In this document: positions 1 to 35,738 of the stretch, piece by piece
How positions within the stretch are numbered: the stretch's first letter is position 1
Layout of the letters: each line of letters begins with the position of its first letter
Origin: a virus
Lineage: Duplodnaviria > Caudoviricetes
Length of the DNA stretch: 64,000 nt
Virus record (IMG/VR): IMGVR_UViG_2894272399_000002
Location: 17,174-81,173 of that record
Reading direction: 5' to 3' (one strand)
Position numbers and translations under genes: made by a program
Notes under the pieces: model-generated
Seen by the model: only the letters and a program-made list of their open reading frames with translations
The model's database searches: none
What the model was told of the DNA's origin: nothing

Positions 1-3000
1 TCTTTCCCGTACAGCTTCCCTCCCCCCCTTTTAATCTCTGCAAGAAGGTTAATGTAGTCCTCAATATCTTGAAACCCGGATGTATCAACGCTTTCAAATT
101 GATACTCTATTTTGGTCTTCGCTTTTCCGCCAGTCATTAGATTTGTCCAGAAGCCGCCAAACCCTTTATTCTCAACTTTCGTATTGAACACTGGATCAAC
201 AAATATCTCTTTTTGGGAGGCAATGGTGTCAACTGTTAGCTGTTGTAGTCGAGTAAGCGCATCTTCCTGCTGTTTGGCATATTGATCATAGAGTGAAAGC
301 ACTCCTTCTGCCCTATCCACTCCTTTTAAATCGTCAAGCAAAACGCGTTGGCGCTCCAATAGATAATTGATACCTTCCAGCTCATTGGCCAAATTCTGGT
401 AATTCTCTACCTGGGCATCCATTGCGGTAGCCAAATCCGAAGCCTTCAACATGGCATCTCTGGCTGAAGTGATAGCGAAAGTGATTATCCCGACAATGCT
501 ACCGACCTGATCAGCAGTTGATGCGCTACTATCCATTAAGGTTGAAATGTCGTTGAGCGCAGCGCTGATCTGCTTGAAGGAAATAGAAAATGATTTGGAG
601 ATATTGATGCTAGTATCACCCAAAATTGAATCAAGGATGCCGGCAGCTTCTTTTAGCCCGTCGGACGTATCTTTGTTCAACTCTCGTTTGGTGTTGGCCA
701 ATAGCAATTCGAGCTTTTTCCGCTCTTCGATCGATAATTTTTCCTTTTTAAGGGCCTCGTCAATATCTGCAATCCTGGCTTTAATCTGCTTCCGACCATA
801 GTCAAGATATTGTTGATATATTTTCTTGTATGAATCCGACTGCTCAAATTCTACATCTTTGATCGCATCTAATTCCTCGTTTTTCTTTAGTTCTATTGCC
901 TTTAATTGTCCCTCCAGTTCGTCTCCACTAGAATTTTTCTGAGCCAACACCTTCAATTCCAAGTATCTTTTCTCGATTTGTAAGACCTTGGCTCCATTGG
1001 CATTTGCCTCGACCAGAAAATCACTCAGCATCAACTGCAATTCCCTTTTTATAGATTGTCTCATTTCGGAGACTTGCTTTAGTTTTTCGAAATCGTCCTC
1101 TGTTTTCGGAGTTCCAAGGCCCGATTGAATTGCGGCCAGATTATCTAAGGCCTCAGATAAAGAGCCTGCGCTTTGCTCAGCCTCGATCAACTGTTTGTTG
1201 AATAACTCAATCCCCGAATCCTTTCCTGTGACACGGTTTTTTTCGGTGTTAAGCAAATCGAGTTTGCTGCTATCTGCCTGGTTTAAAGGTGTAAAATCAT
1301 TCAGAGATTGTAGTTTTCTAATCTCTGAATTTATATAATCCAGATATGACTCATTCCCAGCAACCAAGTTTTTGAATTGCTCATCTGCGGCTTTCTTCCC
1401 GTAAGCATCGACCCAGCGCTGATAAAGTTCATACTGCTGTTTTTTCAGTGCGATTTCTTCCTCAAATGACTTGACAGCGTAAAGTTTCCGGATGTCCTCG
1501 GCCTTCTTCTCGGCTTCGGTTTTGATCTGCATTTGCTGAGAAAGGACACTGGTATTACTACCAGGCGTTTTGTCGATTACTTCCTGGGCTTTTCTGGCAA
1601 TTTCCTCCCAATACGAGATCGATCCGAACGGGCCAATTTTATCAGCGTCCTTTTTATACTTCTGCTGCTCTTTGGTTAACTCGCCAGTTATTGCCCGACG
1701 CTTGGCATCAAGAGCATCGATTTGCTTTTGAAGTTGTTTGTATTCTGAGTTCGAAGAAGCGGTTTCCTGTTGCTCTTGAAGTGACTTAATGGAATCTGTG
1801 TAGAATTTAACCGTTTGGTCGGCATCTGACTTCTCATCAGAGATTGCTTTTTGTCTCTGTTGCCTGCGCGCCTCAATTCCCTCCCGCGACTTTTGAACAA
1901 GTGTCTTTTCGTAGTCTTCTAGTTCTTTAATTGCTTGCTCCCTGTTTCGTCGGGTAATTACATCTGCCTCTTTTTGCAAGTCGACTTTGCCTCCTGAAAA
2001 GCTTTGAGCCAAAGCCAACCCCGTGCCCTCCAAAACAGAAGGGAGAAATTCTTTATCGGCGCTCCCTGACTTTAGTTCTTTGATCCGCTCCCTGGTCTTC
2101 TGTTTCTCGTCGTACAAATTCTGCTGAACCATCCGCTCTTTCATTGCTCGAACGGTTGCTTCAATTGCCTTTGTGCTTTCGTCTGTGGCGATGTTCTCCA
2201 AAGTAAGCGCACTTAAATGTCTGGGTGAAAGTGCGATGAGTTCCTGTAACTTTTGTTTCCGCTCTTCCTGTGATTTGGTTTCGTCCTGTATTGATTTCTT
2301 TAATTGATCAACCTTGATTTTCCGTTGGATATCGACCTTGTCCGACTTCTCGATTTCACCATTGAGACGCTGCTGGGCCTTTTGGGCTTCCGTGGCAGTA
2401 TCGCGGAACAGTGCAACCGCCGTCACCAAAGTAACCAGGGCCGTCGCAGCTATGACATAAGGATTGGCTTTGGTAACCAGATTGAAGAAAATCTGAGCAT
2501 CAGCAGCCGAATGAATTGAAAGAGCGAGATCGCGGTACATTTTCGCTGCGGCGATAGCAGCTGGCAAGGCTTGAACAGCGGCAGTTGCGATAATAGCTGC
2601 GCGGTACGCACCATAGGTAGCGACGATCGTCGTCAGAACATCCAACAGTGGTTCATAATTCTGAACTATCAGAGTGGCAAATTTGATTGAATCTCCCAAT
2701 ACTGCTTCTTGCGATTTCCCTATGTCGTTAAACATTATTTCAATCGCATCCTTTAACTGCGAAGTGAGGCCAGTGAGTGATTTGCTCTGTTTTTCCATTA
2801 AATTGAAAAACATCCCCCCTTCACCAGTCATGTTTTTAAACGCCTTTTCGACTTCCGGAAATCCTACTTTCCCTTGCTCAACAAACTCATTGACCTTATC
2901 GACATTCGTTCCAAGAACCTTAGCCAGCTCTGCATAAATTGGTATTCCTCGTCCAGCAAATTGTCTTATATCAACGGCATACGCTCGACCTTGCGACCTC

Positions 3001-3482
3001 AATGTTCCGTACAGATAGGTGAGATCACCAATGGGAACGGAGATGCCTGCGGACACATCACCAAGCATCCGGAGTTCTTTGACAACATCTTGCGAGGCAG
3101 ATCCATAGGCTAAAAGCTGTTTTGTTGCATTTGCCGCGTCTTTTAGTCCAAAAGGAGTTTGAGCCGCGAGTTGGACGACTTCCCCTAAAAGCTTATCGGC
3201 TTTAGCCTTGTTCCCCAACATAGTGGTAAAGGCAATTTCCAATTGCTGGAATTCGCCTCTGACCTGAATAAGCTTTTGGGGAAGTTGTGAAAGCTCAGTG
3301 AAAGCAAAATAACCGGCGGCGGCCCTACCAAGCTTTGAAAATGTGTCGTCAATCTTTTGAGATTCCTTTACCGCTGTATTACTTAGGCCCTGAACATCCC
3401 GAATCATTTCATTGATCCCGGCACGAAACTTGGCGTTTGCAAGGATGGCTTCGTAAGAGAGCGCCCCGTCGGTAGTATTCAT
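1..3482 (-). CDS. Tail tape measure protein, 3'-truncated by the window edge (>1150 aa)
   Basis: Absent from the ORF track because it has no stop in the window. Manual translation from ATG 3482 (TAATG overlap): MNTTDGALSYEAILANAKF...RGEFQQLEIAFTTMLG...AAQTPF...LGDVSAG...DIRQFAGRGIPI, a typical TMP domain. Same frame is open at position 1; the middle was only spot-checked. Confidence 0.92.
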   Translation of the reverse strand, partial: MNTTDGALSYEAILANAKFRAGINEMIRDVQGLSNTAVKESQKIDDTFSKLGRAAAGYFAFTELSQLPQKLIQVRGEFQQLEIAFTTMLGNKAKADKLLGEVVQLAAQTPFGLKDAANATKQLLAYGSASQDVVKELRMLGDVSAGISVPIGDLTYLYGTLRSQGRAYAVDIRQFAGRGIPIYAELAKVLGTNVDKVNEFVEQGKVGFPEVEKAFKNMTGEGGMFFNLMEKQSKSLTGLTSQLKDAIEIMFNDIGKSQEAVLGDSIKFATLIVQNYEPLLDVLTTIVATYGAYRAAIIATAAVQALPAAIAAAKMYRDLALSIHSAADAQIFFNLVTKANPYVIAATALVTLVTAVALFRDTATEAQKAQQRLNGEIEKSDKVDIQRKIKVDQLKKSIQDETKSQEERKQKLQELIALSPRHLSALTLENIATDESTKAIEATVRAMKERMVQQNLYDEKQKTRERIKELKSGSADKEFLPSVLEGTGLALAQSFSGGKVDLQKEADVITRRNREQAIKELEDYEKTLVQKSREGIEARRQQRQKAISDEKSDADQTVKFYTDSIKSLQEQQETASSNSEYKQLQKQIDALDAKRRAITGELTKEQQKYKKDADKIGPFGSISYWEEIARKAQEVIDKTPGSNTSVLSQQMQIKTEAEKKAEDIRKLYAVKSFEEEIALKKQQYELYQRWVDAYGKKAADEQFKNLVAGNESYLDYINSEIRKLQSLNDFTPLNQADSSKLDLLNTEKNRVTGKDSGIELFNKQLIEAEQSAGSLSEALDNLAAIQSGLGTPKTEDDFEKLKQVSEMRQSIKRELQLMLSDFLVEANANGAKVLQIEKRYLELKVLAQKNSSGDELEGQLKAIELKKNEELDAIKDVEFEQSDSYKKIYQQYLDYGRKQIKARIADIDEALKKEKLSIEERKKLELLLANTKRELNKDTSDGLKEAAGILDSILGDTSINISKSFSISFKQISAALNDISTLMDSSASTADQVGSIVGIITFAITSARDAMLKASDLATAMDAQVENYQNLANELEGINYLLERQRVLLDDLKGVDRAEGVLSLYDQYAKQQEDALTRLQQLTVDTIASQKEIFVDPVFNTKVENKGFGGFWTNLMTGGKAKTKIEYQFESVDTSGFQDIEDYINLLAEIKRGGGKLYGK

Positions 3483-6379: not shown

Positions 6380-6708
6380 TACTGTTTCTGATTTTCAGCA
6401 GCAGCTTTCGCTTCCTGTTCAGCTTTCAGTTTTGCAGCGGCATCGGCCTCTTGCGCGGCCTTCTCAGCAGCAGCTTTCGCAGCATCGTCAGTAGGCTCTG
6501 ATTTTGGTTTAACGGTCTTCTTTGGCGCCTCAATCAAGCCACGGCTCACAAGGCTTTCGAGCAATGCTTCGTCAAAATGACTCACATCATCACCTTCTTC
6601 ATAAGCCTTCTCAAAGTTGTCCCTGTCGCGAAACGGAGACAAAACCAGGTACCCGGATGAGACTTCCTGAGCCTCATCCGGGGTTTTGGTGGTGTTTTTC
6701 TTAGCCAT
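6379..6708 (-). CDS. Small capsid-adjacent hypothetical protein with Ala/Glu/Lys-rich tail
   Basis: TAATG-coupled on both sides. Confidence 0.65.
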   Translation of the reverse strand: MAKKNTTKTPDEAQEVSSGYLVLSPFRDRDNFEKAYEEGDDVSHFDEALLESLVSRGLIEAPKKTVKPKSEPTDDAAKAAAEKAAQEADAAAKLKAEQEAKAAAENQKQ

Positions 6709-7796
6709 TATGCTTGAACTGTTTTAGAATCCAAAAGGTAGATCTGGTCTACGTTGGTCAGAACCGGCAGGGCCATCGCTTGTGAAGTGGTAAATTCCGC
6801 GAGTGAAGGCTGGTTGGTGCGATATTTCGATACCAAAACAAACTCATCGGCAACCTGATATTCTACACCAGCTACCGGAGCGTCAATTTCGGCTAGAGTC
6901 GTCCATGTAAGTGTTCCTACAGTTTCACCGGGCAAGAAGGCTACTTGTCCATCAACCCATGGTTTATAGTTGCTTCGAACCCCATTTCTTTCGATCCGGA
7001 TAGTCCTATCAACAACCTCTACCGTGAATTGGTATTTCTTGCGAAGCACTGTATTTAATTGATCAATGTCAGGTGCAAAAAGTGTAGTTCCTGATGGTTG
7101 GTTTATTGAATTCGCGTATGCTTCTTTAACCTGAGTGGTAGCAACAAGGTTGTCAAATGCCGTGTTGTCGAGCATCACTTTTCCAATTGCATTCCCATCC
7201 CCGCTCACTTTCTTCCGTAGCCTTTGAATGTCGTCTAACGGAGTCGCCGAAGCGGCGTTTGACCATACTACAGCTACACCAAATTTATTCGCTGATGGAA
7301 TACCATAATCAACCCGAATTCCAGCACCGACATTCTCCATATCTTCGATAACGGTCATTCCTGAGGAGATTGCCTCAAGTAAGTTGCCTTCAAGCCTCTC
7401 AGATACCCCGGCAATGCATCGTGGTGTGTCAGCAAATAGCTTCTTAAGCAATTGCGGAATTGTGCTGTTTTGCAATCTCAATATTTGCAACTGCTTTAAT
7501 TGACTTTCATTCAAAGCAAGCCTCATACCGATTTTTGGAATATCTCCACTAGCTTTACTTACGACGTCGCGCATTTTTAATGGCAATGGCGAATCCATTG
7601 CAACAATATCAGCGGCCACGATTGAGCTTGCGGCGGAAATGGACTCCCATTTGCCCGTAGCAGAAAAATCACGCGTCAGCATCGTACGATAGCGATACGT
7701 CAAAGGATTTTTCGTGTTATTTAGCGTTTCTACATAAGCCGCAACTAATGGGCCAAAATTGCGCTTGATATACTCGATGAACTGTGACTGTTCCAT
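6708..7796 (-). CDS. Major capsid protein (lambda gpE-like family)
   Basis: 362 aa; AADIVAMDSPLP, GDIPKI and RVDYGIP motifs; downstream of scaffold and decoration genes. Confidence 0.88.
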   Translation of the reverse strand: MEQSQFIEYIKRNFGPLVAAYVETLNNTKNPLTYRYRTMLTRDFSATGKWESISAASSIVAADIVAMDSPLPLKMRDVVSKASGDIPKIGMRLALNESQLKQLQILRLQNSTIPQLLKKLFADTPRCIAGVSERLEGNLLEAISSGMTVIEDMENVGAGIRVDYGIPSANKFGVAVVWSNAASATPLDDIQRLRKKVSGDGNAIGKVMLDNTAFDNLVATTQVKEAYANSINQPSGTTLFAPDIDQLNTVLRKKYQFTVEVVDRTIRIERNGVRSNYKPWVDGQVAFLPGETVGTLTWTTLAEIDAPVAGVEYQVADEFVLVSKYRTNQPSLAEFTTSQAMALPVLTNVDQIYLLDSKTVQA

Positions 7797-8232: not shown

Positions 8233-8239
8233 TTTTTTA

Positions 8240-8932: not shown

Positions 8933-8970
8933 GAAAACCTCATGTGTGTATAGCGTGTGTGTTGAATGCA

Positions 8971-9113
8971 CAAATATAAAAATAAATATATTCTAAAAAC
9001 AAATGTATTTAAATCATTAAAGAAAATATTTTATTGTCATTTGATGACATTAAAGAATAATATTAAAATGAATATCAATTTATATATGTTTTATTTCAGA
9101 ATGTATATATTTG
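8971..9113. promoter_or_regulatory. Divergent late promoter region
   Basis: TATATTTG (-7 consensus TAnnTTTG) at 8971-8978 on minus and 9106-9113 on plus. Leftward -33 TTTG with 21-nt spacer. Central palindrome TGTCAT-TTG-ATGACA at 9035-9049. Confidence 0.75.
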
Positions 9114-9140
9114 CATAATAACACACACTAAGAGAAGGTA

Positions 9141-9590: not shown

Positions 9591-9591
9591 A

Positions 9592-24346: not shown

Positions 24347-24988
24347 TTGACCATGACCGACCCACGAAGAAAAGATAAACAGATCGCAGAAGCCAGACGC
24401 GTGATCGTCGCCGAGTGCTATAAAAGGGGCATGACGATCCGGCAAACCTGCGAGGCTGTCATGAAACAAATGAGTTTGGATGGGCCGCCCAGCACCAAAA
24501 CGATTTTCAACGATCGGGACTTCCTTCTCAAAGAATGGAAGAAGGAAAGGATTCAAGATGTGGATGACATGCTCCAACTTGAACTAACCCGGATTGACGA
24601 TATCATCATTGAGCTTTGGGAGGCCTGGAAAAAGTCAAAAACCGATTACAAATCAAAATTCTCCAAACAAAAAGGCGAACTGCCCGCGGGTGTTTCTCAC
24701 GATAGGGATATCGATAAGGAGGAAAGGAAGCGCATTAAAGCAACGTATGCAGAGCGCGGAGAAAGGGAAGAAATTATGTTCGGAGATCCGAGGTATTTAT
24801 CAGAGATACGCTTCCAGCTCATAGAAAGAAGAAAGCTTTTGGGGCTATACGCTCCGGAGAAAAAAGAAGTAACAGGAGCGGGAGGAAAAGACCTTCTACC
24901 AGAGAGGACACAGGATATCAGCATGCTTACAGCCGAAGAGAAAGCCATCCTTTTAGACATTGCACGGAAAGTTGATAGAACAAAGTAG
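24347..24988 (+). CDS. terS: Terminase small subunit
   Basis: N-terminal HTH; RRKLLGLYAPEKKEVTGAGGK; upstream of terL. Confidence 0.75.
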   Translation: MTMTDPRRKDKQIAEARRVIVAECYKRGMTIRQTCEAVMKQMSLDGPPSTKTIFNDRDFLLKEWKKERIQDVDDMLQLELTRIDDIIIELWEAWKKSKTDYKSKFSKQKGELPAGVSHDRDIDKEERKRIKATYAERGEREEIMFGDPRYLSEIRFQLIERRKLLGLYAPEKKEVTGAGGKDLLPERTQDISMLTAEEKAILLDIARKVDRTK

Positions 24989-26441
24989 CATATCGTATTA
25001 CCAACTCCTCGATGATATTGAACGTGAAGCATGTAGGGATTCTTTTTACGAGTTTTTGCAGTCTTTTTGGGACGTGATCATCAAAGAAACCCCTGTATTC
25101 AATTGGCACATTAAATTTCTATGCGACGAGCTGCAAGAACTATCTAAAAGCATTGTGAGAAGAGAGGCAAAACCATACGATCTGATTGTAAACATCCCGC
25201 CTGGAACGACAAAATCCACGGTGACAACGATCATGTGGCCTGCATGGTTATGGACTCAGGATCCGACGATCCGGATTATCACAAATTCCTACTCCATGGA
25301 CTTGTCGATAGAGCATGCGGTTAAATCGCGCGATATTCTCACTTCCGAAAAGTTTAAACGCCTTTTTCCTGAAGTAAAGATCCGGAAAGACAAAGGGGCC
25401 AAGTCCTCCTATGAGAACACAAACACCGGCGCCCGTTACACTACATCTACCGGCGGTACGATTACAGGTAAGCATGCGCACATCCTGATCAGTGATGACC
25501 CGTTAAATCCAAGCCAGGCCGCATCCGACGCAGACAGGAAGGCCGCTAACGAGCACACTAAAACTTTGTCGTCGCGTAAGGTCGATAAAGCCAATACGCC
25601 AGTGATTACCATCATGCAGCGACTTCATGAGGAAGACGTGACGGGATATCTTCTCAAAAAGAAGGGCGAAAAGATCCGGCATTTGAACCTGCCCGCCGAA
25701 GACAGTGAAAAAGTTCTTCCCGCGGAAGTACGGGCAAAGTATATTTCTGGCTTGCTGGATCCTGTTCGCTTAAACAGGTCGGTTCTGGATGAAGCGCTGA
25801 CCGATCTTGGATCTATGGGCTATGCCGGTCAGTACGATCAATCGCCGACTGCGAAAGGCGGGAACATCGTAAAAGCAACCTGGTTCAAATACATGTCCTC
25901 CGCCAGCTTTCAGTCGATACGGACACCACAGAACCCGGTAGTTTTCTTCATGGACACGGCCTACACGGACAAAGACCAGGACAATGACCCAACTGGCATA
26001 ATTGCCACATGCAAAATCGGAGCAGACTTATACATCACCAAAGCGGCTAAGGTTTACAAAGAATTTCCAGAGCTCATCAAATTCGTCCCGGATTGGGTTC
26101 GGGCCAATGGCTACTCCAACCAAAGTACATTGCGAATTGAACCGAAAGCGTCGGGGTTGTCGGTTGTTCAGCAACTGAAAAGAACGACCGATATCAACAT
26201 CACGACAACGCCGACACCGAAGGACGATAAGAAAACCAGGCTAACCGCGTCGTCTCCAAAGATCGAATGCGGCCGTGTGATCCTGATAACCGACACATGG
26301 AACGAAGACTTCGTTGACGAAATATGCGGTTTCCCAAACAAAACACACGATGAATACGTGGATTTGATCGCCTACGCGGTTGATTACCATTTGAACACAC
26401 CCAAGACTCAGTCACACGCTATACACAACGCTTTTAGATGA
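24960..26441 (+). CDS. terL: Terminase large subunit
   Basis: NIPPGTTKS Walker A, ISDDP Walker B, MQRLH, and nuclease motifs DTAY...HDEYVD. Confidence 0.93.
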   Translation: MHGKLIEQSSISYYQLLDDIEREACRDSFYEFLQSFWDVIIKETPVFNWHIKFLCDELQELSKSIVRREAKPYDLIVNIPPGTTKSTVTTIMWPAWLWTQDPTIRIITNSYSMDLSIEHAVKSRDILTSEKFKRLFPEVKIRKDKGAKSSYENTNTGARYTTSTGGTITGKHAHILISDDPLNPSQAASDADRKAANEHTKTLSSRKVDKANTPVITIMQRLHEEDVTGYLLKKKGEKIRHLNLPAEDSEKVLPAEVRAKYISGLLDPVRLNRSVLDEALTDLGSMGYAGQYDQSPTAKGGNIVKATWFKYMSSASFQSIRTPQNPVVFFMDTAYTDKDQDNDPTGIIATCKIGADLYITKAAKVYKEFPELIKFVPDWVRANGYSNQSTLRIEPKASGLSVVQQLKRTTDINITTTPTPKDDKKTRLTASSPKIECGRVILITDTWNEDFVDEICGFPNKTHDEYVDLIAYAVDYHLNTPKTQSHAIHNAFR

Positions 26442-27856
26442 AAAACATCAATGAAATTCTTGCTCAAGGGTCGACTACGGACATCATTGACGAATTAAAA
26501 AAGAAAAATATTGTCGTTCCTAAATGGGAGGAATTGGTCAAGGAATACGAGCCAAAGTTGCATGCTATTATTGCTGACAAGGCAAAGTATCCGGACAAAC
26601 CGATTTACGACAATAACGACAACATCATTAAGACTGAACCAATCACTCGGGTGGCGATTGGCTTACAGAAACTTGCGGTGAAAAGGATGTCTGAGTTTAT
26701 GTTCACTATCCCGGCAAACCCTATTTGTGAGGACGCGGACACTGACAAGCAGATTGAAGAGCAGTTCACAGCTTTGAAAAAAGTTTTGAAAAAGAACAAG
26801 TGGAAGACGCTCAATAAAAAACGGTGCAAAATAATCTCTTCGCAGTGCGAGCAGGCCACTTATTGGTATGTCGTTCAGGGCAAGGAGAAGCACAACCTTT
26901 ATGGGTTCGAAACTACATTCAAACTCAAATGTGCAGTCTTCTGCCCAGAAAATGGCGACACCTTATTTCCTCTTTTTGATGAAATGGGTGATATGATCGC
27001 ATTCAGCCGGGAGTTTGCAATTCAGGATGGCGACAAGAAAACACAATACTTCGAAACCTGGACAAGTGACAAGTACATTCGATGGAGACAGGAGTCTGGC
27101 AGCGAATGGACAGTTGACACACCACCTACCGTGATACAAATAGGCAAAATCCCCCTTGTGTACGGGTATCGAAAAAACCCAATCTGGGACGATGCCGACA
27201 ATGGCAAAGTCTCAGAGATTGAACTGCTGCTTTCCCGTAATGGTGACATCATTGCCTACCACGCGGCCCCAGTACTTATCATCAAAGGCGAACTTGCCGG
27301 TGCGCCGAGCAAGAGCGAAGCGAACAAAGTGTTCACTACTGATACCGGCGGTGGCGCTGAATACGTATCATGGCAACAGTCGCCCGAATCGGTGAAATTC
27401 CAATTCGAAACGCTTCTTCGCATGTACTTTACTGAATTGCAGCTACCCGACCTTTCGTTCGAAAACATTAAGGGCCTGGGCGCAGCTTCCGGAGAAGCCC
27501 GCAAATGGCTCCTTGCTGATGCTCACTTAAAGGTTGGTGACGAGTCTGAAATTTACGAGGATATTATTGACCGCGAATACAGCATCATTAAGGCCTACCT
27601 CGGTGCAATGAATACGAGGTGGAAGGACTCGATCAACGATTTGGAAATCGAGACCGAGATCACACCTTTTATTATTTCCGATGAGAAAACGAAGGTCGAA
27701 GTGCTTGTGGCGGCCAACGGAGGCAAGCCTCTGGTTTCTCAGGAGCGTAGCGTAGAACTGGCTGGCTTCTCTGAAAAACCAGGTGATGATTTCATCAAGA
27801 TCAAAGCCGAATACGCCGAAGAGAACGTGAAAGACATCCTCGAACCAACTTTTTAA
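26438..27856 (+). CDS. Portal protein (SPP1 gp6-like)
   Basis: 472 aa after terL; GKIPLVY and SGEA motifs. Confidence 0.9.
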   Translation: MKNINEILAQGSTTDIIDELKKKNIVVPKWEELVKEYEPKLHAIIADKAKYPDKPIYDNNDNIIKTEPITRVAIGLQKLAVKRMSEFMFTIPANPICEDADTDKQIEEQFTALKKVLKKNKWKTLNKKRCKIISSQCEQATYWYVVQGKEKHNLYGFETTFKLKCAVFCPENGDTLFPLFDEMGDMIAFSREFAIQDGDKKTQYFETWTSDKYIRWRQESGSEWTVDTPPTVIQIGKIPLVYGYRKNPIWDDADNGKVSEIELLLSRNGDIIAYHAAPVLIIKGELAGAPSKSEANKVFTTDTGGGAEYVSWQQSPESVKFQFETLLRMYFTELQLPDLSFENIKGLGAASGEARKWLLADAHLKVGDESEIYEDIIDREYSIIKAYLGAMNTRWKDSINDLEIETEITPFIISDEKTKVEVLVAANGGKPLVSQERSVELAGFSEKPGDDFIKIKAEYAEENVKDILEPTF

Positions 27857-27859
27857 GCC

Positions 27860-28048
27860 ATGGACGATCTCGTATTACAGATAATCAACGCCTGCATCCA
27901 GCAAAGAAAAGATTCCGGTCTTACACCGCATCATGTGACTTTGATCAACCTTGACAGAAGCATAAAAGACTCGCTGAACCGGCTTTATTCTGCCGGTAAA
28001 ATCAAGGTTGGGGATACAATTAACGATAAATACATTGATGTTTTATGA
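27860..28048 (+). CDS. Small hypothetical protein (winged-helix-like)
   Basis: LNRLYSAGKIKVGDTIND; coupled in the operon. Confidence 0.55.
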   Translation: MDDLVLQIINACIQQRKDSGLTPHHVTLINLDRSIKDSLNRLYSAGKIKVGDTINDKYIDVL

Positions 28049-28569
28049 GTGATAAAAAAATAGTGGCAGCTCCTGAATTAAAGAAATTAGAGAATAATCT
28101 AAATAGCATCACCGAGTTATGTACAATTTCTGGACTTGCGTCGGTCTCCGCTGATCTCATCACGTGCCTTGTTGCCGAAAAGATCGGAAGCGGTTGCTAT
28201 CGATCCGTTTACGAGTACAACCTAGATCCAAAATATGTTATTAAGATCGAGCCATTAAACACTAACTGTAATATCACAGAGTACTTATTGTGGAATGAAA
28301 TACGCGGATTAACAGGGGATCTTGCATGGGTTAAGGACTGGTTCGCCCCAGTGAAATGGATGTCCCCAAACGGACGCGTTCTTGTCATGGAACGTACAAA
28401 GCAAAACTACAAAAAGAAGAAGCCAACTGAGATTCCTAAGTTCATGTGGGATGTAAAGGAGGATAACTTCGGATGGATTGGCAAAAAATATGTTTGCCAC
28501 GACTATGGTCAGTTTTACAACTTCATTCATTACTCGAAGGCAATGCAAAAGGTCGGCAATCGGTGGTAG
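28045..28569 (+). CDS. Minimal protein-kinase-fold enzyme
   Basis: IGSGCYRSVY Gly-loop, VIK lysine, LVME hinge, DVKEDN catalytic loop, HDYG in place of DFG. Confidence 0.72.
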   Translation: MSDKKIVAAPELKKLENNLNSITELCTISGLASVSADLITCLVAEKIGSGCYRSVYEYNLDPKYVIKIEPLNTNCNITEYLLWNEIRGLTGDLAWVKDWFAPVKWMSPNGRVLVMERTKQNYKKKKPTEIPKFMWDVKEDNFGWIGKKYVCHDYGQFYNFIHYSKAMQKVGNRW

Positions 28570-28642: not shown

Positions 28643-30328
28643 ATGCCAAAGTTTTCAGTCGAAGGCTGGGACGGCGAACATTTCAAAAGGACGGAGGTTT
28701 TCGCCAAACAGGTTCGGAATATTTACCTTGCTGCAATCCGGGAAGCAATCCGTATGGGGTTGTCTGTTAATTACGACCCGAGCAAACCGTTCTCGTTCTC
28801 CAAATTCCCAGTCTTAAATCAGCGGGTCAAAAAGCTCTTTGGTGACCTATCCGATAAGATCGAAGCTGTCATAACCGATGGCATCAACTCCGAATGGGAG
28901 TTTGCCAACGACAAAAACGACTCGTTTCTTAATAGTGTCCTGAAAACCGACAAGATGCCTGAGCGGGCGCTGGCCAGGTTAACGGGACGAAACAATGAAG
29001 CACTCGTTCAGTTCCAGCAGCGACGGACAAACGGACTCGGCTTATCCGACCGGGTATGGAACACGAACCAGCAATTCCGGTCCGAGTTAGAAATGGCCTT
29101 GGAGCTTGGCATTGCCGACGGACGATCAGCTGATCAACTCAGCCGTGATATCCGTTCTTACCTGGAAGACCCAGACAAGCTTTTTCGAAGAATAAGGGAG
29201 CGAGAGAACGGGCCGCTGCGATTGTCCCAACATGCCAAGAATTACAAGCCCGGACGCGGTGTTTACCGAAGCTCGTATAAAAACGCTCTTCGCCTGACTC
29301 GTACGGAGATCAATATGGCTTACAGGGAGTCCGATTTTGCCCGCTGGAAGAACTTTGACTTCGTTGTTGGGATAGAGGTTAGGCGTAGTAATAACCCCTA
29401 CCCTTGCATTGTTTGCGAGAGTTTAAAAGGCCGCTACCCAAAAACATTCAAGTTCAGATCCTGGCATCCGCAATGCCGCTGTCATGCCATTTCAATTCTG
29501 GCCACGGAGAAGGAGATCAATGAGATGGAGTTGAAAATGCTCAATGGGGAAGATACTTCGGAATTTGTCAGTAAAAATGAGGTTAGGGAAATGCCCGCCG
29601 GACTTACCAGCTGGATTAACGACAATAAGCAACGACTTCTTTCCTCAGCAAGTCAGCCGTATTTTATACAGGACAACTTTAAAGGCGGGCATCTTTCCGG
29701 AGGATTAAAATTAACGTTGCCCGGCGATCCAATTGATCCATACATCAAAGCAACCAGATCGAAAGAAAACGTTTTTGCGAGACGATCCACCGATATTGCG
29801 AAAGCACTGAGAGTGAAAGTTACTGACGTGAACAAGAAATCGATCAGTCGAATTGTGGAGAAAGCGAATGCGGACTACGGCGGCGATATAACCCAAGTTC
29901 ACGACATCATTAGAAATACCTTTATCTCATCAACTCTGGTTTCTCCTGAGGATATCCTCGACAAAGTCAATGAAGAATTCCAGGTAATCAAAGTGAAAGA
30001 ACAATCAGCAAGTAAAGATCCTATGGGATATAGCGGGATTCTTGTTCAAGTCCTTTTAGAAAAGAACATTTTTGCAGAAATCCAGATCAATACACCGCAG
30101 ATGATTTACGCAAAAGAAGCAAATGCAAAAGAAATTCTCGGGGATGACTTATTCGAGGAAATTCAAGCCGCTTCAGGACTGGAACACGGCCTTGGACATG
30201 CTTATTATGAAGAATACCGAACCATTGACCAGTCCACAAGTAAAGGGAAAGAATTGGCTCTTAAAGTGATGGACAAATCGAAAAAATACTATGAGAAGCT
30301 TCGATCCGCGGCATTAAAATCAAAATGA
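28643..30328 (+). CDS. MuF/SPP1 gp7-like head morphogenesis protein with C-terminal RelA/SpoT-type synthetase toxin domain (Apk2-like)
   Basis: MuF motifs RLTRTE...C..C..L.G.Y...WHPQCRC; C-domain KS..RIVEK, DIIR, GYSG, EIQINT, GH..YE. Confidence 0.85.
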   Translation: MPKFSVEGWDGEHFKRTEVFAKQVRNIYLAAIREAIRMGLSVNYDPSKPFSFSKFPVLNQRVKKLFGDLSDKIEAVITDGINSEWEFANDKNDSFLNSVLKTDKMPERALARLTGRNNEALVQFQQRRTNGLGLSDRVWNTNQQFRSELEMALELGIADGRSADQLSRDIRSYLEDPDKLFRRIRERENGPLRLSQHAKNYKPGRGVYRSSYKNALRLTRTEINMAYRESDFARWKNFDFVVGIEVRRSNNPYPCIVCESLKGRYPKTFKFRSWHPQCRCHAISILATEKEINEMELKMLNGEDTSEFVSKNEVREMPAGLTSWINDNKQRLLSSASQPYFIQDNFKGGHLSGGLKLTLPGDPIDPYIKATRSKENVFARRSTDIAKALRVKVTDVNKKSISRIVEKANADYGGDITQVHDIIRNTFISSTLVSPEDILDKVNEEFQVIKVKEQSASKDPMGYSGILVQVLLEKNIFAEIQINTPQMIYAKEANAKEILGDDLFEEIQAASGLEHGLGHAYYEEYRTIDQSTSKGKELALKVMDKSKKYYEKLRSAALKSK

Positions 30329-30556
30329 ATCGTACGCAGACTTTTCAATTTCGTCCATTCCGAGAATAGCATCAAACACAATCCTGTTGCTGCGCTCTGT
30401 GGGGAATTCTTTCTTGCCTTTAAATTTTCGAAAGTATTGTCGCGTACCATTCTCGGTAATCCACCGGATCGCCGCGTCTTCGTAATCGTTTAAGAGGTAA
30501 GCTTCTGGCTTGTCTTCTAACTCCAAAACCGCCTCACTCGGGTCTTTTATCTTCAT
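30320..30556 (-). CDS. Putative immunity protein for the MuF toxin
   Basis: 78 aa abutting the toxin 3' end with a 9-bp convergent overlap. YLLNDYEDAAIR...ILG..EI.KS.YD resembles, from memory, small proteins downstream of Bacteroidota MuF-Apk2 genes. Confidence 0.55.
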   Translation of the reverse strand: MKIKDPSEAVLELEDKPEAYLLNDYEDAAIRWITENGTRQYFRKFKGKKEFPTERSNRIVFDAILGMDEIEKSAYDSF

Positions 30557-30576
30557 GACTTAAAGTTAATGAATTT

Positions 30577-30783
30577 TCATTTTTTTTTCGAAAATAGATG
30601 CGCCCACTGTTTCCGGTATTCATCCATTTTCTCAAAGGTAATACCATAATCGTTGAGCCTGTCATCGGTTATCGGCAGCCCGTCTCGCTCCATTTCCAAC
30701 AGGGATAGTGCGCGCAGGCTTCTGTCAGTTTCTTCTGAAACTTTGAATTCAGCATGCATGGCGGTGGTTAGTTCTTCTTTCAT
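30577..30783 (-). CDS. Hypothetical protein
   Basis: ORF in a leftward run of small genes. Confidence 0.55.
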   Translation of the reverse strand: MKEELTTAMHAEFKVSEETDRSLRALSLLEMERDGLPITDDRLNDYGITFEKMDEYRKQWAHLFSKKK

Positions 30784-30812
30784 TTATTAAGATTGTGGAC
30801 ATAAGTCCTTTT

Positions 30813-31133
30813 TTATTCGTTGATTATTTCCAGAATCCTCTCCAGTTGCGAATCGTTAAGCTTTTCAAAATTACAAATCCGGATATCCCGCAAGTTTATC
30901 GTCCGAAGGTGTTTCTGTTTCAACTCGTCAGTAGGCAGAAAAAAAGATCCATCAAAAGGTGATCCACCGATCTGAGACAAATATTTCCCGTTGTGCTCTC
31001 TTTTGAATTTAAAATGATTCGCAAATGCCGATTTATCCGTGACCCTATCAATAGTAATCACTCTGACAACCTCTCTGGAACCGACTTGGTAAATATCGTC
31101 CCCTACGTTGAGTAAAAGCTTTTCTGCTACCAT
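30813..31133 (-). CDS. Hypothetical phage protein
   Basis: SH3-like N-terminus (LNVGDDIY); ends L.DSQLERI. Confidence 0.6.
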   Translation of the reverse strand: MVAEKLLLNVGDDIYQVGSREVVRVITIDRVTDKSAFANHFKFKREHNGKYLSQIGGSPFDGSFFLPTDELKQKHLRTINLRDIRICNFEKLNDSQLERILEIINE

Positions 31134-31171
31134 GATGAAAATGTGTAAATGATATTATCCGAATCTCATTT

Positions 31172-31450
31172 TTAAATAAACTGCTCCTCCCGGATAACCG
31201 GCCGAAACTCTCCAAAGAAATCCCCGAACGTGGCATATTTCGAACCTCCTGCTTCCTTTTCCTCCTTTGCCGCTTCAAAGCAAAACAGCGCGTCGTCGTC
31301 CCCGTAATAGTACTGCTTCACTCCGGGAGTTTCGACTATCTCGGGCACCCAGACTTCCGAAACTGCTTCTTCCAGCGTCGAACCCGGGTACAATTGGGCG
31401 TAATTGAAAATCCTTTCAAGTGTTTCGAGTGGGAATAGTGTGGTGTTCAT
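31172..31450 (-). CDS. Hypothetical protein
   Basis: ORF in leftward run. Confidence 0.55.
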   Translation of the reverse strand: MNTTLFPLETLERIFNYAQLYPGSTLEEAVSEVWVPEIVETPGVKQYYYGDDDALFCFEAAKEEKEAGGSKYATFGDFFGEFRPVIREEQFI

Positions 31451-31474
31451 ATGATTATTTAGGTTGAAAGTGTT

Positions 31475-31777
31475 TTAGAATACGATGTCAAAATCTCCTT
31501 CAATAATCTTATAATCGTTATGAAGAATTTTTTCCGTTATTAATCTCCTGATACGATCTACAGCGGCCTCATAAGAAAGATTTTGATTTTTTGGTGGTAA
31601 CGGAAGCGACACCAAATAGACGGATTGTTCGATACTCGCCGCAAGAAGTCCGCGGTTGACGACTTTAAATACGACGTCCACATGTGAATCTTTAAATAAC
31701 ACCTGTAAAACCAACAATTTAACCTCTTCTCGCGTGATTCGATTAAAAAACTTCAATGGTATTGTTATAGAGTTCAT
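31475..31777 (-). CDS. Hypothetical protein
   Basis: ORF in leftward run. Confidence 0.5.
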   Translation of the reverse strand: MNSITIPLKFFNRITREEVKLLVLQVLFKDSHVDVVFKVVNRGLLAASIEQSVYLVSLPLPPKNQNLSYEAAVDRIRRLITEKILHNDYKIIEGDFDIVF

Positions 31778-31806
31778 AATTTAGTCGATCGTTTTTAAAC
31801 TGTAAT

Positions 31807-32214
31807 ATGCCTGGAACCGAAACCATCATCAAGATTGAACGAACTGTCTTCAAGACTATGAAATTCAGCGCGACTGAATATATTGGATACTTGATTCAGA
31901 CTTCCGACCAACTGATCAAAATTGGAATCCTGAATGACCCGGAAGACCTGTATCGTTCCGGATGTCAAGCCTCATCTGATGATCTCGCCGAGTTTATCGG
32001 TTCTCCCCTGCTCTCAATTTCCGTTTCAGAACAAGAAGTAATGCCAATCGCACTACCAGAGATAGAAGATTTCGAATTGGCAAATTTTAAACACGTTAAC
32101 ATTGAAACGTCCCTCGGATTACTTCAAATCACCTTTTACAACGTATCTAATAAATATTTAGACCGGGAGTTTGTCATACTGAGTAAACAAGTCAATATCC
32201 AGGATACGATTTAA
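31807..32214 (+). CDS. Hypothetical protein
   Basis: 135-aa ORF filling the gap on the plus strand. Confidence 0.55.
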   Translation: MPGTETIIKIERTVFKTMKFSATEYIGYLIQTSDQLIKIGILNDPEDLYRSGCQASSDDLAEFIGSPLLSISVSEQEVMPIALPEIEDFELANFKHVNIETSLGLLQITFYNVSNKYLDREFVILSKQVNIQDTI

Positions 32215-32224
32215 TGAAGTTAAT

Positions 32225-32584
32225 TTATGTCTTCACCGGCACCCCAATCAATACCTCTCTTGTGCAATCTCCATTCAAATAATCCACCGCAAGAACCGCA
32301 ATCGCCCGGCCTTGAACAGTTCGCAAAGTCGGTGAAATGTCTGTGTAATTCCTTTTATCATCAACCAGGATGTCGATTGCCTCCTCGTAACCTTCCTTGA
32401 TCGCCGCGTTTTTCAACAACTTCATTTCTGGTTTGTTAAGCTTGTCATAGATCAAAGTGATGGTTTCCTCGATCTGGTCCTCCGTCGGCACCGTGTTCGC
32501 CCATTTTTCGAGATTTTCGGCTGTCCATTGCTCTAACTTGTCGTGGTACTGATTTTCTGGTGCCTTCATATTATGTGTGTTCAT
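32225..32584 (-). CDS. Hypothetical protein (start may be 32569)
   Basis: Helical acidic ORF. Confidence 0.6.
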   Translation of the reverse strand: MNTHNMKAPENQYHDKLEQWTAENLEKWANTVPTEDQIEETITLIYDKLNKPEMKLLKNAAIKEGYEEAIDILVDDKRNYTDISPTLRTVQGRAIAVLAVDYLNGDCTREVLIGVPVKT

Positions 32585-32588
32585 GCCC

Positions 32589-33017
32589 TCACTTTATGGA
32601 AAGATATAGTTGATACAATTGATCGTCATCCAGCTCTTCCAATTTCCATTTTTTCCACTGGAAGTTGGGTATGCTGTGTCCACCACCTCCATTCTCCATG
32701 TAACCCAACTCCGAAAGCCTATTGCTGTGGTTCATTGATGGCACTGTGCCCGCGACCATGTTTACCAGGTCAGATTTATTAACCCCTAACGTTAGAATTT
32801 CTGCAAAATCATCAAAAACTCTCGTCTTAGCGACTTCGATCAAAACCCATTTTTCGATCTCTGACAATTCAATTCGCCCGTTGCAATCATCTGAGAAATA
32901 AACTTGTCCGCTTTCCCACTGGAAATACCCGGTGCACACTGTGCCATCTTTAAACAAGGCAAAGATCTCTTTATCGATTGGCAATCCGGTTTGTAAAACT
33001 TCACCTTGTGTGCTCAT
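32589..33017 (-). CDS. Hypothetical protein
   Basis: 142-aa ORF. Confidence 0.55.
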   Translation of the reverse strand: MSTQGEVLQTGLPIDKEIFALFKDGTVCTGYFQWESGQVYFSDDCNGRIELSEIEKWVLIEVAKTRVFDDFAEILTLGVNKSDLVNMVAGTVPSMNHSNRLSELGYMENGGGGHSIPNFQWKKWKLEELDDDQLYQLYLSIK

Positions 33018-33042
33018 AGTGGTATATCAAATATTTGAATTG

Positions 33043-33486
33043 TCACGATATCGGCAAATCATTAAAATCATCCGGAATTTCCAGCTGACCCTTCAAACTA
33101 CCAAGCGATACCCCGCCCTCGTTTTTCACTTTCTCAATCTCCTCCTTCAAATACGCAATGTAATTGTTCCGAGACGCCAACACTTCCCTGCCTTGCTCCT
33201 CTGTCAATTCAAAACGGCCGCGCTTGTCCGGATCATCAAGCAAAAAGAACTCAACTTTGTAACTTGAATCCGAATGTTCGAACCGGTGAGGGTGGATTCC
33301 TAGATCGTGGAACAACGGCATCAGAAAAGGTGATGTTACTGGGCCAGATGCATCCCCACCGAATCTCTTGTAAAATTCAGCAAGAGCGAGCTTGTATTCC
33401 GTCTCGAAAACATTCTCCACCTGAAAGACATCGGACTTGAAAAACTCAAGAAGTTCCTTAGGAGGTATCGCATCTGTAAATCTCAT
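33043..33486 (-). CDS. Hypothetical protein with DUF2281-antitoxin-like C-terminal motif
   Basis: Ends LGSLKGQLEIPDDFNDLP. Confidence 0.5.
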   Translation of the reverse strand: MRFTDAIPPKELLEFFKSDVFQVENVFETEYKLALAEFYKRFGGDASGPVTSPFLMPLFHDLGIHPHRFEHSDSSYKVEFFLLDDPDKRGRFELTEEQGREVLASRNNYIAYLKEEIEKVKNEGGVSLGSLKGQLEIPDDFNDLPIS

Positions 33487-33521
33487 TTTTAGCTAAGGCG
33501 GTTTAATTCAAAGATAAGGAA

Positions 33522-35108
33522 TTAACAAACTGGTTCTTTGCTCGACTTTCTTTTTGCGAAACCTTTCCAGGTCTCAGCAGGTAATGGATTACCCTTTGCT
33601 TTGCTGTATGCCTGGTTTAGCCTTGCCCAATCCTCAATATTCAAGAATTCAAAGTGACCTGTCCCTTTCTTGAAAACTTTAAACCGAAAGAAGCCCCACT
33701 CGTACCAAGTGTTGGGCTTAAAATACCCGTAACCTGATGGTTTTGGGTATGGAAGGGTTTGTCGATTATACTTCCCCGTCCGTCGCTCTTCAGCAGCCCG
33801 CATTTCCAGAATTTCCGTCTGGGTATCTTGGGGCAATGAAGAATCCCCGATTGGGGGCATTCTGTTGTAATCCTTACCAGTTAGGAAGCACAGTGCTTTA
33901 ACAAGATCAATTATCTGAGAAAATTTGCCCTGGTGAGTATTTATTTTCACTCCATTATTCCCTTCCCAAGCATATTGGTATTCACAAATATAGGGCGTGA
34001 TAAATTTCTGGTTCAATAGGTTACCTGCGTTCGTTTTCCACCCTGGCAAGTTGAATCTGTTCTCATCAGTATACATTGTAAAGTTGTCTACGGCCTCGAC
34101 AATAGCTTTTTCCATATTCTCCCCGGAAGTTCCCACGATCGTCTCTACCATCCGAAAAATATTTTTCATGGTGAATGGGTAATTCAATCGACTTTCAACG
34201 TATTCGTTCACCTTTGACATCACTCCTCTTGTCAGGTATTTTTCAAGATCAAACTTTGCGAAAACAATCTTCCAGCACTTCTTCTGCAGGGTTCTGGCAA
34301 ATGTGGCTTTGTCGACTATCTCGCCCTTATCATGCCCCCTGTCATCGATATCAGTGCTTGACACCTTGTAATTAAAACCTCCGTGGGTACCAAACCCCAC
34401 CGCCTTACATATTCCATTTAGTTCGTTTCCCACGTCGGCGAATTTATCAAAACACCGCACTGCGCCTGTATAATTATTGACTAGCGCTTGAATTTCGTTG
34501 TAACGGATCACACCGGAGACATCGTTCAGTTCCGGCATATCGTAGTAGAATCCTTCAAAGGCTTCATTGCTCGCAGATACCGGCTTGAATAACCTGATAA
34601 TCGCAATCGACACATCCGTTACTCGCTCAGCTCGTTTGTAAGCCCCGTCGTAATGCTCCACACCCCCATAGCTTGCAATCAACGATTTAAGCTCTTTGCG
34701 CTTTTGACTGTACGGGTTGTTGATGGTTTCTGCGTTGCATTGGGAAACGATTTCGCACCCTTCCGGCGCAATATTCCACGCATGTAAGATGTGTTGATCT
34801 GCATTTGAATAGGGTGGGTTCATAAGTATCATCTGCACATGGCTAATGCTTTCTGATGTTGCCTGGAACCAATCAGAACCGATTACAGGATATTTTGTGG
34901 ATAACAGGGCACGGAGCTCGTCGTTTTTTTCAATGCCTTCAACAGAATAAGCCCCTGAAGCGAAAGCATATCTTAAAATATTCCCTTTCCCTGCCGACGG
35001 ATCAAGAACCCTTTTTCCGTAACAATCAACATTCATCGCCTCCCAGGCTTCTTTACTACAAGGATAAAATTCAGGATCAAACATAACACTCTTCATTTGC
35101 GACATCAT
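33522..35108 (-). CDS. N6-adenine DNA methyltransferase with DUF4942-like C-terminal domain
   Basis: EFYP, VLDPSAGKG (motif I), NPPY (motif IV); GWKTN and FKKGTGHFEF. Confidence 0.85.
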   Translation of the reverse strand: MMSQMKSVMFDPEFYPCSKEAWEAMNVDCYGKRVLDPSAGKGNILRYAFASGAYSVEGIEKNDELRALLSTKYPVIGSDWFQATSESISHVQMILMNPPYSNADQHILHAWNIAPEGCEIVSQCNAETINNPYSQKRKELKSLIASYGGVEHYDGAYKRAERVTDVSIAIIRLFKPVSASNEAFEGFYYDMPELNDVSGVIRYNEIQALVNNYTGAVRCFDKFADVGNELNGICKAVGFGTHGGFNYKVSSTDIDDRGHDKGEIVDKATFARTLQKKCWKIVFAKFDLEKYLTRGVMSKVNEYVESRLNYPFTMKNIFRMVETIVGTSGENMEKAIVEAVDNFTMYTDENRFNLPGWKTNAGNLLNQKFITPYICEYQYAWEGNNGVKINTHQGKFSQIIDLVKALCFLTGKDYNRMPPIGDSSLPQDTQTEILEMRAAEERRTGKYNRQTLPYPKPSGYGYFKPNTWYEWGFFRFKVFKKGTGHFEFLNIEDWARLNQAYSKAKGNPLPAETWKGFAKRKSSKEPVC

Positions 35109-35113
35109 AAAAG

Positions 35114-35163
35114 TACAACAATAGTTTTACTTATACAACTTTTGTTTTACTTTCTTATCTTTG
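35114..35163 (+). promoter_or_regulatory. Tandem operators plus -7 element for the HTH gene
   Basis: TACAACAATAGTTTTACTT (35114) and TACAACTTTTGTTTTACTT (35134); TATCTTTG at 35156-35163. Confidence 0.6.
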
Positions 35164-35167
35164 GAGC

Positions 35168-35383
35168 ATGAAAATGGAGGAATATCTGAAAAGTGGGTTA
35201 TCTATCAACCTCAATGAAGTTGCAAAACGCATGTGGCCTAACAACCCGAGCGCAAAAACTTATATGAGTGCTAAATTGAATGGTAAAGAGAAAAAGTGGA
35301 CACCAAAGGATACCGAAAAGGCTAAACAAGTTTTACGGGAGCTTTATCAAAGTGGACTTAATCAAATCGACAACTTAAAGTAA
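35168..35383 (+). CDS. Small HTH transcriptional regulator
   Basis: NLNEVAKRMW...TYMSAKLNG XRE-like HTH. Confidence 0.7.
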   Translation: MKMEEYLKSGLSINLNEVAKRMWPNNPSAKTYMSAKLNGKEKKWTPKDTEKAKQVLRELYQSGLNQIDNLK

Positions 35384-35384
35384 C

Positions 35385-35603
35385 CTACCTCTCCCCTTCC
35401 AAGATCCGCTTCACCTCCATCAAATGCGGATAGTAATTCGTCCCCTTCCCGCCATCCGGATTAATTTTCATCAACCGTATCCGATCGTTGACCCATTGCT
35501 TGGATATTTCGGTGGTGTAACCCATCATTTGTACCCACTGGGTTGTAATCTCCAATTTCTCAAAATACCGCTCCAACTCCAAAATATCTTTCAACGTAGC
35601 CAT
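35385..35603 (-). CDS. Hypothetical protein
   Basis: 72-aa ORF divergent from umuD. Confidence 0.55.
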   Translation of the reverse strand: MATLKDILELERYFEKLEITTQWVQMMGYTTEISKQWVNDRIRLMKINPDGGKGTNYYPHLMEVKRILEGER

Positions 35604-35649
35604 CTCACATTTCCTTTTTCATTTCAACACGCAAAATTTAACATCATTT

Positions 35650-35679
35650 GGATCATTTCCAAATTTTAGGAATTATTCC
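35650..35679. promoter_or_regulatory. Two GGA-N5-TCC SOS boxes (Bacteroidota non-canonical LexA-type)
   Basis: GGATCATTTCC at 35650-35660 (within TTTG...CAAA) and GGAATTATTCC at 35669-35679, upstream of umuD. Confidence 0.72.
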
Positions 35680-35738
35680 ATTTTTTTCTTGACAAGTTGG
35701 CTCAAGCTTGTTCACCTTTGCATAAAATCAGCGAGGAC

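Follow-up and report, generated by a model that had tools for sequence, protein, structure and literature searches.

A predicted MuF-fused (p)ppApp synthetase with a convergent, overlapping Tis1-type immunity gene in a lineage of Bacteroidota phages

The purpose of toxins fused to MuF-type domains is an openly stated gap in the literature. The closest described systems are the 89 MuF-fused homologues of the toxin Tas1 that were named Apk2, of which an example from Bacteroides caccae makes (p)ppApp, with BcTis1 and the hydrolase Aph1 each accounting for part of its neutralisation (PMC10083569). Three more prophages have been described (PMC12226406), where the binding immunity protein is called IapK, the Apk2tox domains of other phages make (p)ppApp exclusively, and IapK-type immunity is mainly partner-specific. 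Among toxic small alarmone synthetases (toxSAS), Tis1-like neutralisers go with (pp)pApp producers and pZFD antitoxins with the tRNA-modifying enzymes (PMC11782079). The published Apk2 accounts place the immunity gene 'downstream' of the toxin gene, or describe the toxin gene as 'followed by' it (PMC10083569; PMC12226406). The discussion of the first of these asks whether MuF toxins travel inside virions and enter cells by injection, and whether lysogens gain a competitive edge from them (PMC10083569); prophage-encoded immunity has been proposed to protect siblings (PMC5576092). Here we analyse a MuF-fused toxin gene, and the small gene that converges on it, in a 64,000-nucleotide stretch of a Caudoviricetes record (IMG/VR IMGVR_UViG_2894272399_000002, positions 17,174 to 81,173), the whole of which is called the window below.

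The window lies at C37:135113-199112 of an 8.41-Mb, 39-contig host genome and is therefore part of a prophage. The system it carries is a known one: the pair is an ordinary new member of the published Apk2 class (in which a (p)ppApp synthetase is fused to MuF and accompanied by a Tis1-like immunity protein and, in some cases, Aph1), with a head-family match and packaging position, a Tas1-like domain and an adjacent Tis1-like gene, the last on the opposite strand. Within a lineage of related Bacteroidota phages, a layout that is convergent, overlapping and free of Aph1 recurs as a variant. Taken as a whole, we consider it probable that the window encodes an Apk2-class MuF toxin with a convergent, cognate Tis1/IapK-type immunity protein under separate control. 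The features at the centre of this reading are the following.

28643..30328, + strand: MuF-like::Apk2 fusion gene, 561 amino acids (aa), open reading frame (ORF) from an ATG, last gene of the rightward packaging block
28643..29734, + strand: N-terminal minor head domain, putatively MuF/SPP1-gp7-like (matches to PHROG families for head morphogenesis and minor head proteins; TIGR01641 below cut-off)
29765..30325, + strand: C-terminal Tas1/Apk2-type toxSYNTH domain, a predicted (p)ppApp synthetase (6OX6_A, Pfam RelA_SpoT)
30320..30556, - strand: Tis1/IapK-type immunity gene, 78 aa, ORF from an ATG, convergent with the toxin gene
30320..30328, both strands: overlap of the convergent coding regions, 9 bp, with no intergenic space for a terminator
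30577..31777, - strand: four small leftward genes (100, 92, 106 and 68 aa), spaced 20-38 bp apart and lying just upstream of the immunity gene

An earlier reading of the same DNA, made from the sequence only, had described a MuF domain followed from about 29735 by a RelA/SpoT-type domain. Both parts stand, the first as a MuF-like head protein, and the second can be named more exactly as Tas1/Apk2-like. Over aa 10-537 the protein matches phrog_7625 ('head morphogenesis') at E 4.6e-83, with further PHROG head-family matches to phrog_115 (E 4.4e-27) and phrog_1657 (E 8e-26), and aa 202-284 match TIGR01641 (phageSPP1_gp7) at E 0.0015. From the PHROG matches and the position of the gene, we treat the N-terminal part as a putative divergent MuF-type domain. 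It contains a cysteine cluster (C258...C278/C280) whose columns are nearly invariant in an alignment with 12 database relatives. The same alignment is conserved to about aa 350, variable over a linker at about aa 353-372 and conserved again from about aa 373, so that the boundary first placed at 29735, which is aa 365, falls within the linker. The toxin gene is present in a single copy in the genome. Some relatives have longer MuF toxins (L004, ORF 2265-4880, 871 aa; L016, 5980-8877, 965 aa), and in one of 819 aa (P0012) an inserted ADP-ribosyltransferase domain (PF03496) separates the Apk2 domain from the MuF part, so that a single capsid protein bears two toxin domains.

The C-terminal ~190 aa match Tas1 (6OX6_A) at E 4.3e-24 over 164 residues, the sole PDB sequence found at E<=10, and aa 399-492 match Pfam RelA_SpoT. 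Across the window protein and the 12 relatives, the invariant C-domain columns are K399, K407, D421, R424, T426, Y463, G465, Q481, N483, H519 and Y522, which we take to be the synthetase motifs (syn1-5); E479 is nearly invariant, with a lysine in the relative P0011. The window domain contains GYSGIL and EIQIN, the latter like EIQVN in Tas1.

The 78-aa product is, by homology and predicted fold, a Tis1/IapK-type immunity protein. As a single sequence it is matched by PF24154 (Tis1_ImmP) at E 6.8e-5, just short of the cut-off, and over its full length by Tis1 (6OX6_B) at E 0.005, while a family profile built from it and 17 relatives matches 6OX6_B at E 1.4e-14. Its AlphaFold (AF2) model has a pLDDT of 88.9, and a Foldseek search with the model returned 6OX6_B at the top (prob 1.00, template-modelling (TM) scores 0.63/0.65, root-mean-square deviation 2.0 A over 64 columns), the runner-up having E 0.54. 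Searched with phmmer, the protein also finds, for instance at E 1.8e-13, the ORFs that directly follow Apk2 homologues in related loci. It is the sole Tis1-like ORF in the window. The gene earlier proposed as a candidate immunity gene is thus a homologue of Tis1, which was co-crystallised with Tas1, and because of the matches to 6OX6_A and 6OX6_B the two partners correspond by homology to the two chains of a single solved complex of toxin and immunity protein.

The convergence and the 9-bp overlap reported earlier are as described: the toxin gene ends in ...TCA AAA TGA, where TCA is the reverse complement of the TGA stop of the immunity gene. As the immunity gene is on the opposite strand, immunity must be transcribed leftward and apart from the late operon, a claim of the sequence-only reading that follows directly from the strand of the gene. 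Judged from spacing, the four small genes and the immunity gene probably form one transcription unit (31777->30320). Of the four, the 106-aa ORF alone has matches, to phrog_15121 (E 2.7e-10) and, weakly, to Phage_ProQ_C_like. The leftward array has one large gap, which is filled exactly by a + strand ORF (31807-32214, 135 aa, with no family match) whose distance to the divergent start at 31777 is 29 bp; if this ORF is real, the leftward genes would be split into two units, with the promoter of the immunity unit inside the 5' coding region of that ORF. The G+C fraction is 0.47 at 29-30 kb and drops to 0.41 at 30-32 kb, a change consistent with an accessory cassette but no proof of one.

Transcription signals were scanned over 29600-35800, where neither sigma-70-like promoters (13 sites against 12.3 +/- 3.9 expected) nor intrinsic terminators (5 against 5.4 +/- 2.2) exceeded expectation and none of either lay at the junction. 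The motif TAnnTTTG, the Bacteroidota -7 consensus, occurred 39 times in the window against 49.3 +/- 7.1 expected. One match, at 30633-30640 (-), lies 77 nt upstream of the immunity ATG and was rejected as promoter evidence, there being no TTTG at the -33 distance. Folding of four 140-nt stretches flanking the junction, covering both strands, gave z values of 0.82, -0.71, -0.18 and 1.00 and supported no hidden terminator; within ~270 nt on either side of the junction there was no terminator-like site and no unusually stable fold. Without a stable hairpin there, the two transcripts may overlap, a point on which these scans are weak negative evidence.

To place this layout among its relatives, 95 loci were compared (14 from species genomes, the best 80 of 138 IMG/VR hits, and the window), with toxin and immunity ORFs found by hidden Markov models (HMMs) built in this analysis. 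They divide as follows.

76/95 loci: co-directional Tis1-like ORF, mostly 24 bp past the toxin stop
14/95 loci: convergent Tis1-like ORF
5/95 loci: no Tis1-like ORF found (L044, at a contig end; L024; Pseudomonadota L006, L009 and L012)

Co-directional immunity is therefore the usual arrangement, as had been supposed, and the comparison of gene orientation that had been proposed as a check finds the convergent one recurring in related Bacteroidota phages. Counted over unique full-length toxins (n=66), 52 are co-directional, 12 convergent and 2 without an immunity ORF. The 14 convergent loci comprise the window (-9 bp), L005 (a strong convergent Tis1-like ORF at +71 bp, next to a toxin without the MuF part) and twelve loci with a diverged ORF (family A2) that usually overlaps the toxin stop by 11 bp, with 14 bp in L021 and a 3-bp gap in L001. 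The A2 family is Tis1-like by hhalign (94.9%, E 4.1e-8), and its fold has 6OX6_B as the top Foldseek match (prob 0.99, TM 0.50/0.58). Because the A2 profile found nothing meaningful among PDB sequences (best E 0.66), its homology to Tis1 rests on hhalign and the fold. One A2 member, in L020, is co-directional. Two loci with identical toxins, L023 (immunity ORF 7820-8119, -) and L024 (7799-8098, -), differ in that the convergent immunity ORF of L024 is reduced to its C-terminal half; the 5' half is replaced by unrelated, stop-containing sequence, marking a recombination breakpoint inside the immunity gene.

The large terminase (TerL) of the window is very close to those of the convergent loci L017/L018, L029, L032 and L001 (phmmer E 1e-209 to 1e-226), among which are its closest TerL relatives, and the window and these loci therefore share a closely related packaging enzyme. 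In a quick maximum-likelihood tree of the 66 toxins, orientation is clustered, with at least 3 changes forced by supported branches and 5-6 by parsimony; because many deep branches are long and open, no direction of change was inferred. Toxins of the large co-directional clade with Aph1 share ~31-40% identity with that of the window. In a sample of 401 genomes of the host's order, one other has the toxin domain at E<=1e-10. This genome (G086), of another species of the same genus, provides the closest full-length pair: the toxin is 50% and the 77-aa immunity ORF 48% identical, the two genes converge with a 4-bp overlap, and the order portal, MuF-Apk2, convergent immunity is as in the window. 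Past the portal-MuF block of G086, the immunity gene and an unrelated 207-aa ORF make up a leftward cassette of two genes, followed by a 390-bp gap.

G086:C7:126000-142000 (prophage L100), 8179-9834, + strand: toxin gene
same prophage, 9831-10064, - strand: immunity gene
same prophage, 10096-10719, - strand: 207-aa ORF

With the layout recurring in relatives, a one-off inversion unique to the window was ruled out.

The convergent loci also lack Aph1. Searching with an Aph1-type HMM made from these loci gives a hydrolase ORF in 67/76 co-directional, 0/14 convergent and 0/5 immunity-less loci; Pfam HD_4 is present directly after the immunity gene in the one co-directional record tested and in 0/4 convergent phage records. 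Nine deep co-directional relatives are likewise without Aph1, and its absence therefore tracks lineage, not orientation as such. The statement that no HD hydrolase lies nearby agrees with searches by HD_4-type models, which were the models used: PF13328 (HD_4) has none on the contig and the Aph1-type HMM finds nothing in the window (best E 0.54). A hidden second immunity in the form of a nearby HD hydrolase was rejected on the same finding. In the 8.4-Mb genome PF13328 falls at two places, both on contigs other than that of the window, namely the long RelA/SpoT homologue (RSH) of the host and one 191-aa small alarmone hydrolase. The latter, at L096:1279-1854 (-), which is G000 contig C11 at ~666.7 kb, matches HD_4 at 22 bits and, best in the PDB, human MESH1/HDDC3 (E 4e-7), and its context is non-phage, adjoining by eye dioxygenase-like and transporter-like ORFs. 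Such a stand-alone host hydrolase could blunt (p)ppApp toxicity in the host.

Our proposed explanation joins these elements as follows. The MuF-like N-terminal domain would place a few copies of the toxin in the capsid next to the portal, and the Tas1-like domain would move pyrophosphate from ATP to the 3'-OH of ADP or ATP, making (p)ppApp and draining the adenylate pool. The 78-aa protein would neutralise the toxin stoichiometrically by occluding the pyrophosphate-acceptor site, with no Aph1 as back-up. Its gene, presumably the last of the leftward unit, is off the late packaging transcript of the toxin and would therefore be under separate control, and immunity would most likely be made before and independently of the toxin, by early or lysogenic expression. 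Because immunity would precede the toxin, the producing cell would be shielded while virions assemble; if the leftward unit is on in the lysogen, lysogens too would be protected from toxin delivered by sibling virions. Whether the immunity gene is expressed in the lysogen or only early in the lytic cycle is about evenly balanced.

Several observations weigh against this reading. On the window sequences alone the curated models fall below their cut-offs, with 22.2 bits of 27 for RelA_SpoT, 23.3 of 27 for Tis1_ImmP and 18.9 of 39.65 for TIGR01641, and the Pfam MuF model (PF04233) has no match to the window protein at E<=1 (it matches 1/13 aligned relatives, at E 0.0024). The signatures of Streptococcus pneumoniae Apk2 (syn3 GxN, syn4 YH), as given in the text of PMC12226406, are not obviously matched in the window, and the enzyme product is therefore assigned from the family, not from a specificity motif. 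The promoter of the leftward unit is not assignable, sigma-70-like and TAnnTTTG sites being at or below chance. The surveyed loci are non-independent, with 66 unique full-length toxins, some records present in both collections and the IMG/VR set limited to the best 80 of 138 hits.

The alternative that survives best is that the convergent orientation has no regulatory meaning: MuF is simply last in its block, the immunity gene owes its strand to an inversion or to its arrival with a neighbouring leftward cassette, and it protects the producer in the lytic cycle, not lysogens. We give this a real, though less than even, prospect of being correct. According to a crude greedy ORF map, co-directional modules (toxin-immunity(-Aph1)) sit inside the late operon, the downstream genes being mostly + in 43/48 unique loci with enough flank, and the convergent loci are followed by genes mostly on the - strand in 5/10, mixed in 3/10 and mostly + in 2/10. 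The repeated changes of orientation on the toxin tree fit this account, as does the fact that the leftward neighbours differ among the window, G086 and the other convergent loci. It sits less well with the tight junction (-9, -4, -11, -14 and +3 bp), kept across pairs of 35-50% identity, and with a leftward promoter that is necessarily distinct from the late rightward one. A stronger version of the opposite view, in which the convergent 3' overlap is a regulatory device conserved in a lineage of temperate Bacteroidota phages, with the leftward unit active in lysogens, pre-arming them against sibling virions, and antisense transcription, for want of a terminator between the genes, entering the toxin-domain coding region and damping leaky toxin until the late promoter fires, seems to us unlikely; if true, it would be the first genomic signature of MuF toxins acting on recipient cells, as kin-discriminating, virion-delivered weapons, and not just requiring neutralisation in the producer.

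We regard as very doubtful the possibility that the C-domain is another toxSAS, either a tRNA 3'-CCA pyrophosphokinase of the FaRel2/CapRel/PhRel type or a (p)ppGpp synthetase. Pfam sees just a generic, sub-threshold RelA_SpoT domain, and not all specificity motifs of one characterised Apk2 are identical in the window; against this, Tas1 was the sole RSH-type match in the PDB search at E<=10, where FaRel2, CapRel, RelQ and RelP were absent, and the partner is Tis1-like, a type tied to (pp)pApp producers as opposed to the pZFD of tRNA modifiers (PMC11782079), while characterised Apk2 domains make (p)ppApp exclusively (PMC12226406). Least probable of all is a decaying or orphan module, with an inactive toxin domain or a non-cognate immunity gene left adjacent after rearrangement: orphan and chimeric pieces do accumulate in polymorphic toxin loci, as the half-length ORF of L024 illustrates, and in P0011 the nearly invariant E479 is replaced by K, but neither window ORF is truncated or broken and no family-invariant column is missing, the G086 toxin (50%) and immunity (48%) have diverged alike in the same layout, as a co-evolving pair should, and there is a single Tis1-like ORF in the window and a single toxin copy in the genome.

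If an Apk2-class toxin with separately controlled immunity is the right reading, its interest lies in the uncoupling. Where immunity is co-directional it sits inside the late-gene block, and its expression is therefore uninformative on where protection is needed. In the lineage of the window, immunity would be transcriptionally uncoupled from the toxin, and it stands alone without Aph1. Immunity as a lysogenic function, if true, would help to discriminate models of producer protection from those of recipient or kin protection.

The wider map of the window agrees with the position of the toxin gene at the end of a packaging module.

3..3482, - strand: tape measure (leftward head and tail genes)
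6708..7796, - strand: major head protein (leftward head and tail genes)
from 23813, + strand: ParB-like gene
from 24347, + strand: TerS-like gene
24960..27856, + strand: TerL and portal genes (packaging module)
from 24960, + strand: TerL gene (phrog_38, E 1.3e-88)
from 26438, + strand: portal gene (phrog_64, E 1.7e-49)

The rightward block spans 9141->30328 and holds tail-fibre-like genes and the packaging module (TerS-TerL-portal), with TerL and portal directly upstream of the toxin gene apart from two small intervening ORFs. One of these small ORFs (28045-28569, +, 174 aa, between the portal and MuF genes) matches phrog_4301 (unknown function) at E 8.3e-31 and shows, by eye, G-x-G-x-x-x-x-V ... 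V-I-K, like the nucleotide-binding loop of protein kinases, with no Pfam match. At the start of the block, two + strand ORFs, 9592-12168 (858 aa) and 12763-14829 (688 aa), are without PHROG or Pfam matches at the thresholds used. The leftward head and tail genes run from 8971 past the left edge of the window, and the intergenic stretch 8972-9140 separates them from the rightward block. TAnnTTTG motifs occur there on both strands (8971-8978 and 9000-9007 on -, 9106-9113 on +), the + site lying 28 bp upstream of the ATG at 9141. They could plausibly serve as divergent late promoters, but the motif is without overall enrichment in the window. That the late operon ends at the toxin gene, as first proposed, is correct for the rightward block: 3' of the toxin gene up to 35108 all genes are leftward, one unverified + strand ORF (31807..32214) excepted, in an array (35108->30320) whose far end is a DNA methyltransferase-like gene (33522..35108). 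Beyond it lie a UmuD-like/UmuC-like (Y-family polymerase) pair (35697-37449, +; phrog_811, E 5.9e-45; phrog_1268, E 2.8e-148) and a leftward early region (57626->~42000) with Ant, an SbcC-like gene, RecT and a replication initiator, in which a PAPS-reductase-like gene is also found (49694-50794, -; phrog_424, E 9.7e-29).

As for precedent, word searches of the main texts of PMC10083569, PMC11699363, PMC12691689 and PMC5576092 found no mention of an opposite-strand or convergent immunity layout, and 'orientation', the sole word checked in the text of PMC12226406, has 0 occurrences. The convergent, overlapping, Aph1-less layout is thus not found described in the texts of the literature searched; Fig. 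1C and Dataset S1 of PMC10083569, which lie outside a text-only search, might show a convergent case.

Among known systems, the MuF-fused ADP-ribosyltransferase Bxa of a Bacteroides stercoris prophage (PMC11699363) shares with the window the genomic organisation of MuF toxins, and the N-terminal part of the window protein matches phrog_16625, which bears the Bxa name, at E 2.3e-90 with its best stretch on aa 197-347; the toxin domain of Bxa, an ADP-ribosyltransferase, and its immunity proteins differ from those of the window. Tas1-Tis1 (Apk1), the type VI pair of Pseudomonas aeruginosa PA14 (PDB 6OX6), has both chains homologous to the window pair, for which the same neutralisation mechanism would be expected by analogy, whereas the delivery domain of Tas1 is PAAR, for the type VI secretion system, and that of the window toxin is a phage minor-head domain; the tas1-tis1 genes are co-expressed, according to the text of PMC10083569, and the window pair lies on opposite strands. 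Closest in setting is the B. caccae prophage locus BcApk2 (BcTas1, BACCAC_01148)/BcTis1/Aph1 (PMC10083569), which like the window has a MuF-type N-terminus with a Tas1-like domain, a Bacteroidota prophage packaging module and a small Tis1-like gene at the 3' end of the toxin gene; compared by description, the B. caccae immunity gene is downstream in a three-gene cluster with aph1, whereas that of the window is on the opposite strand with a 9-bp overlap and no Aph1. The Apk2/IapK systems likewise combine a MuF toxin and a binding immunity protein, with or without a hydrolase, and it is in its lack of aph1 and in the convergent orientation of its two genes that the window differs from them.

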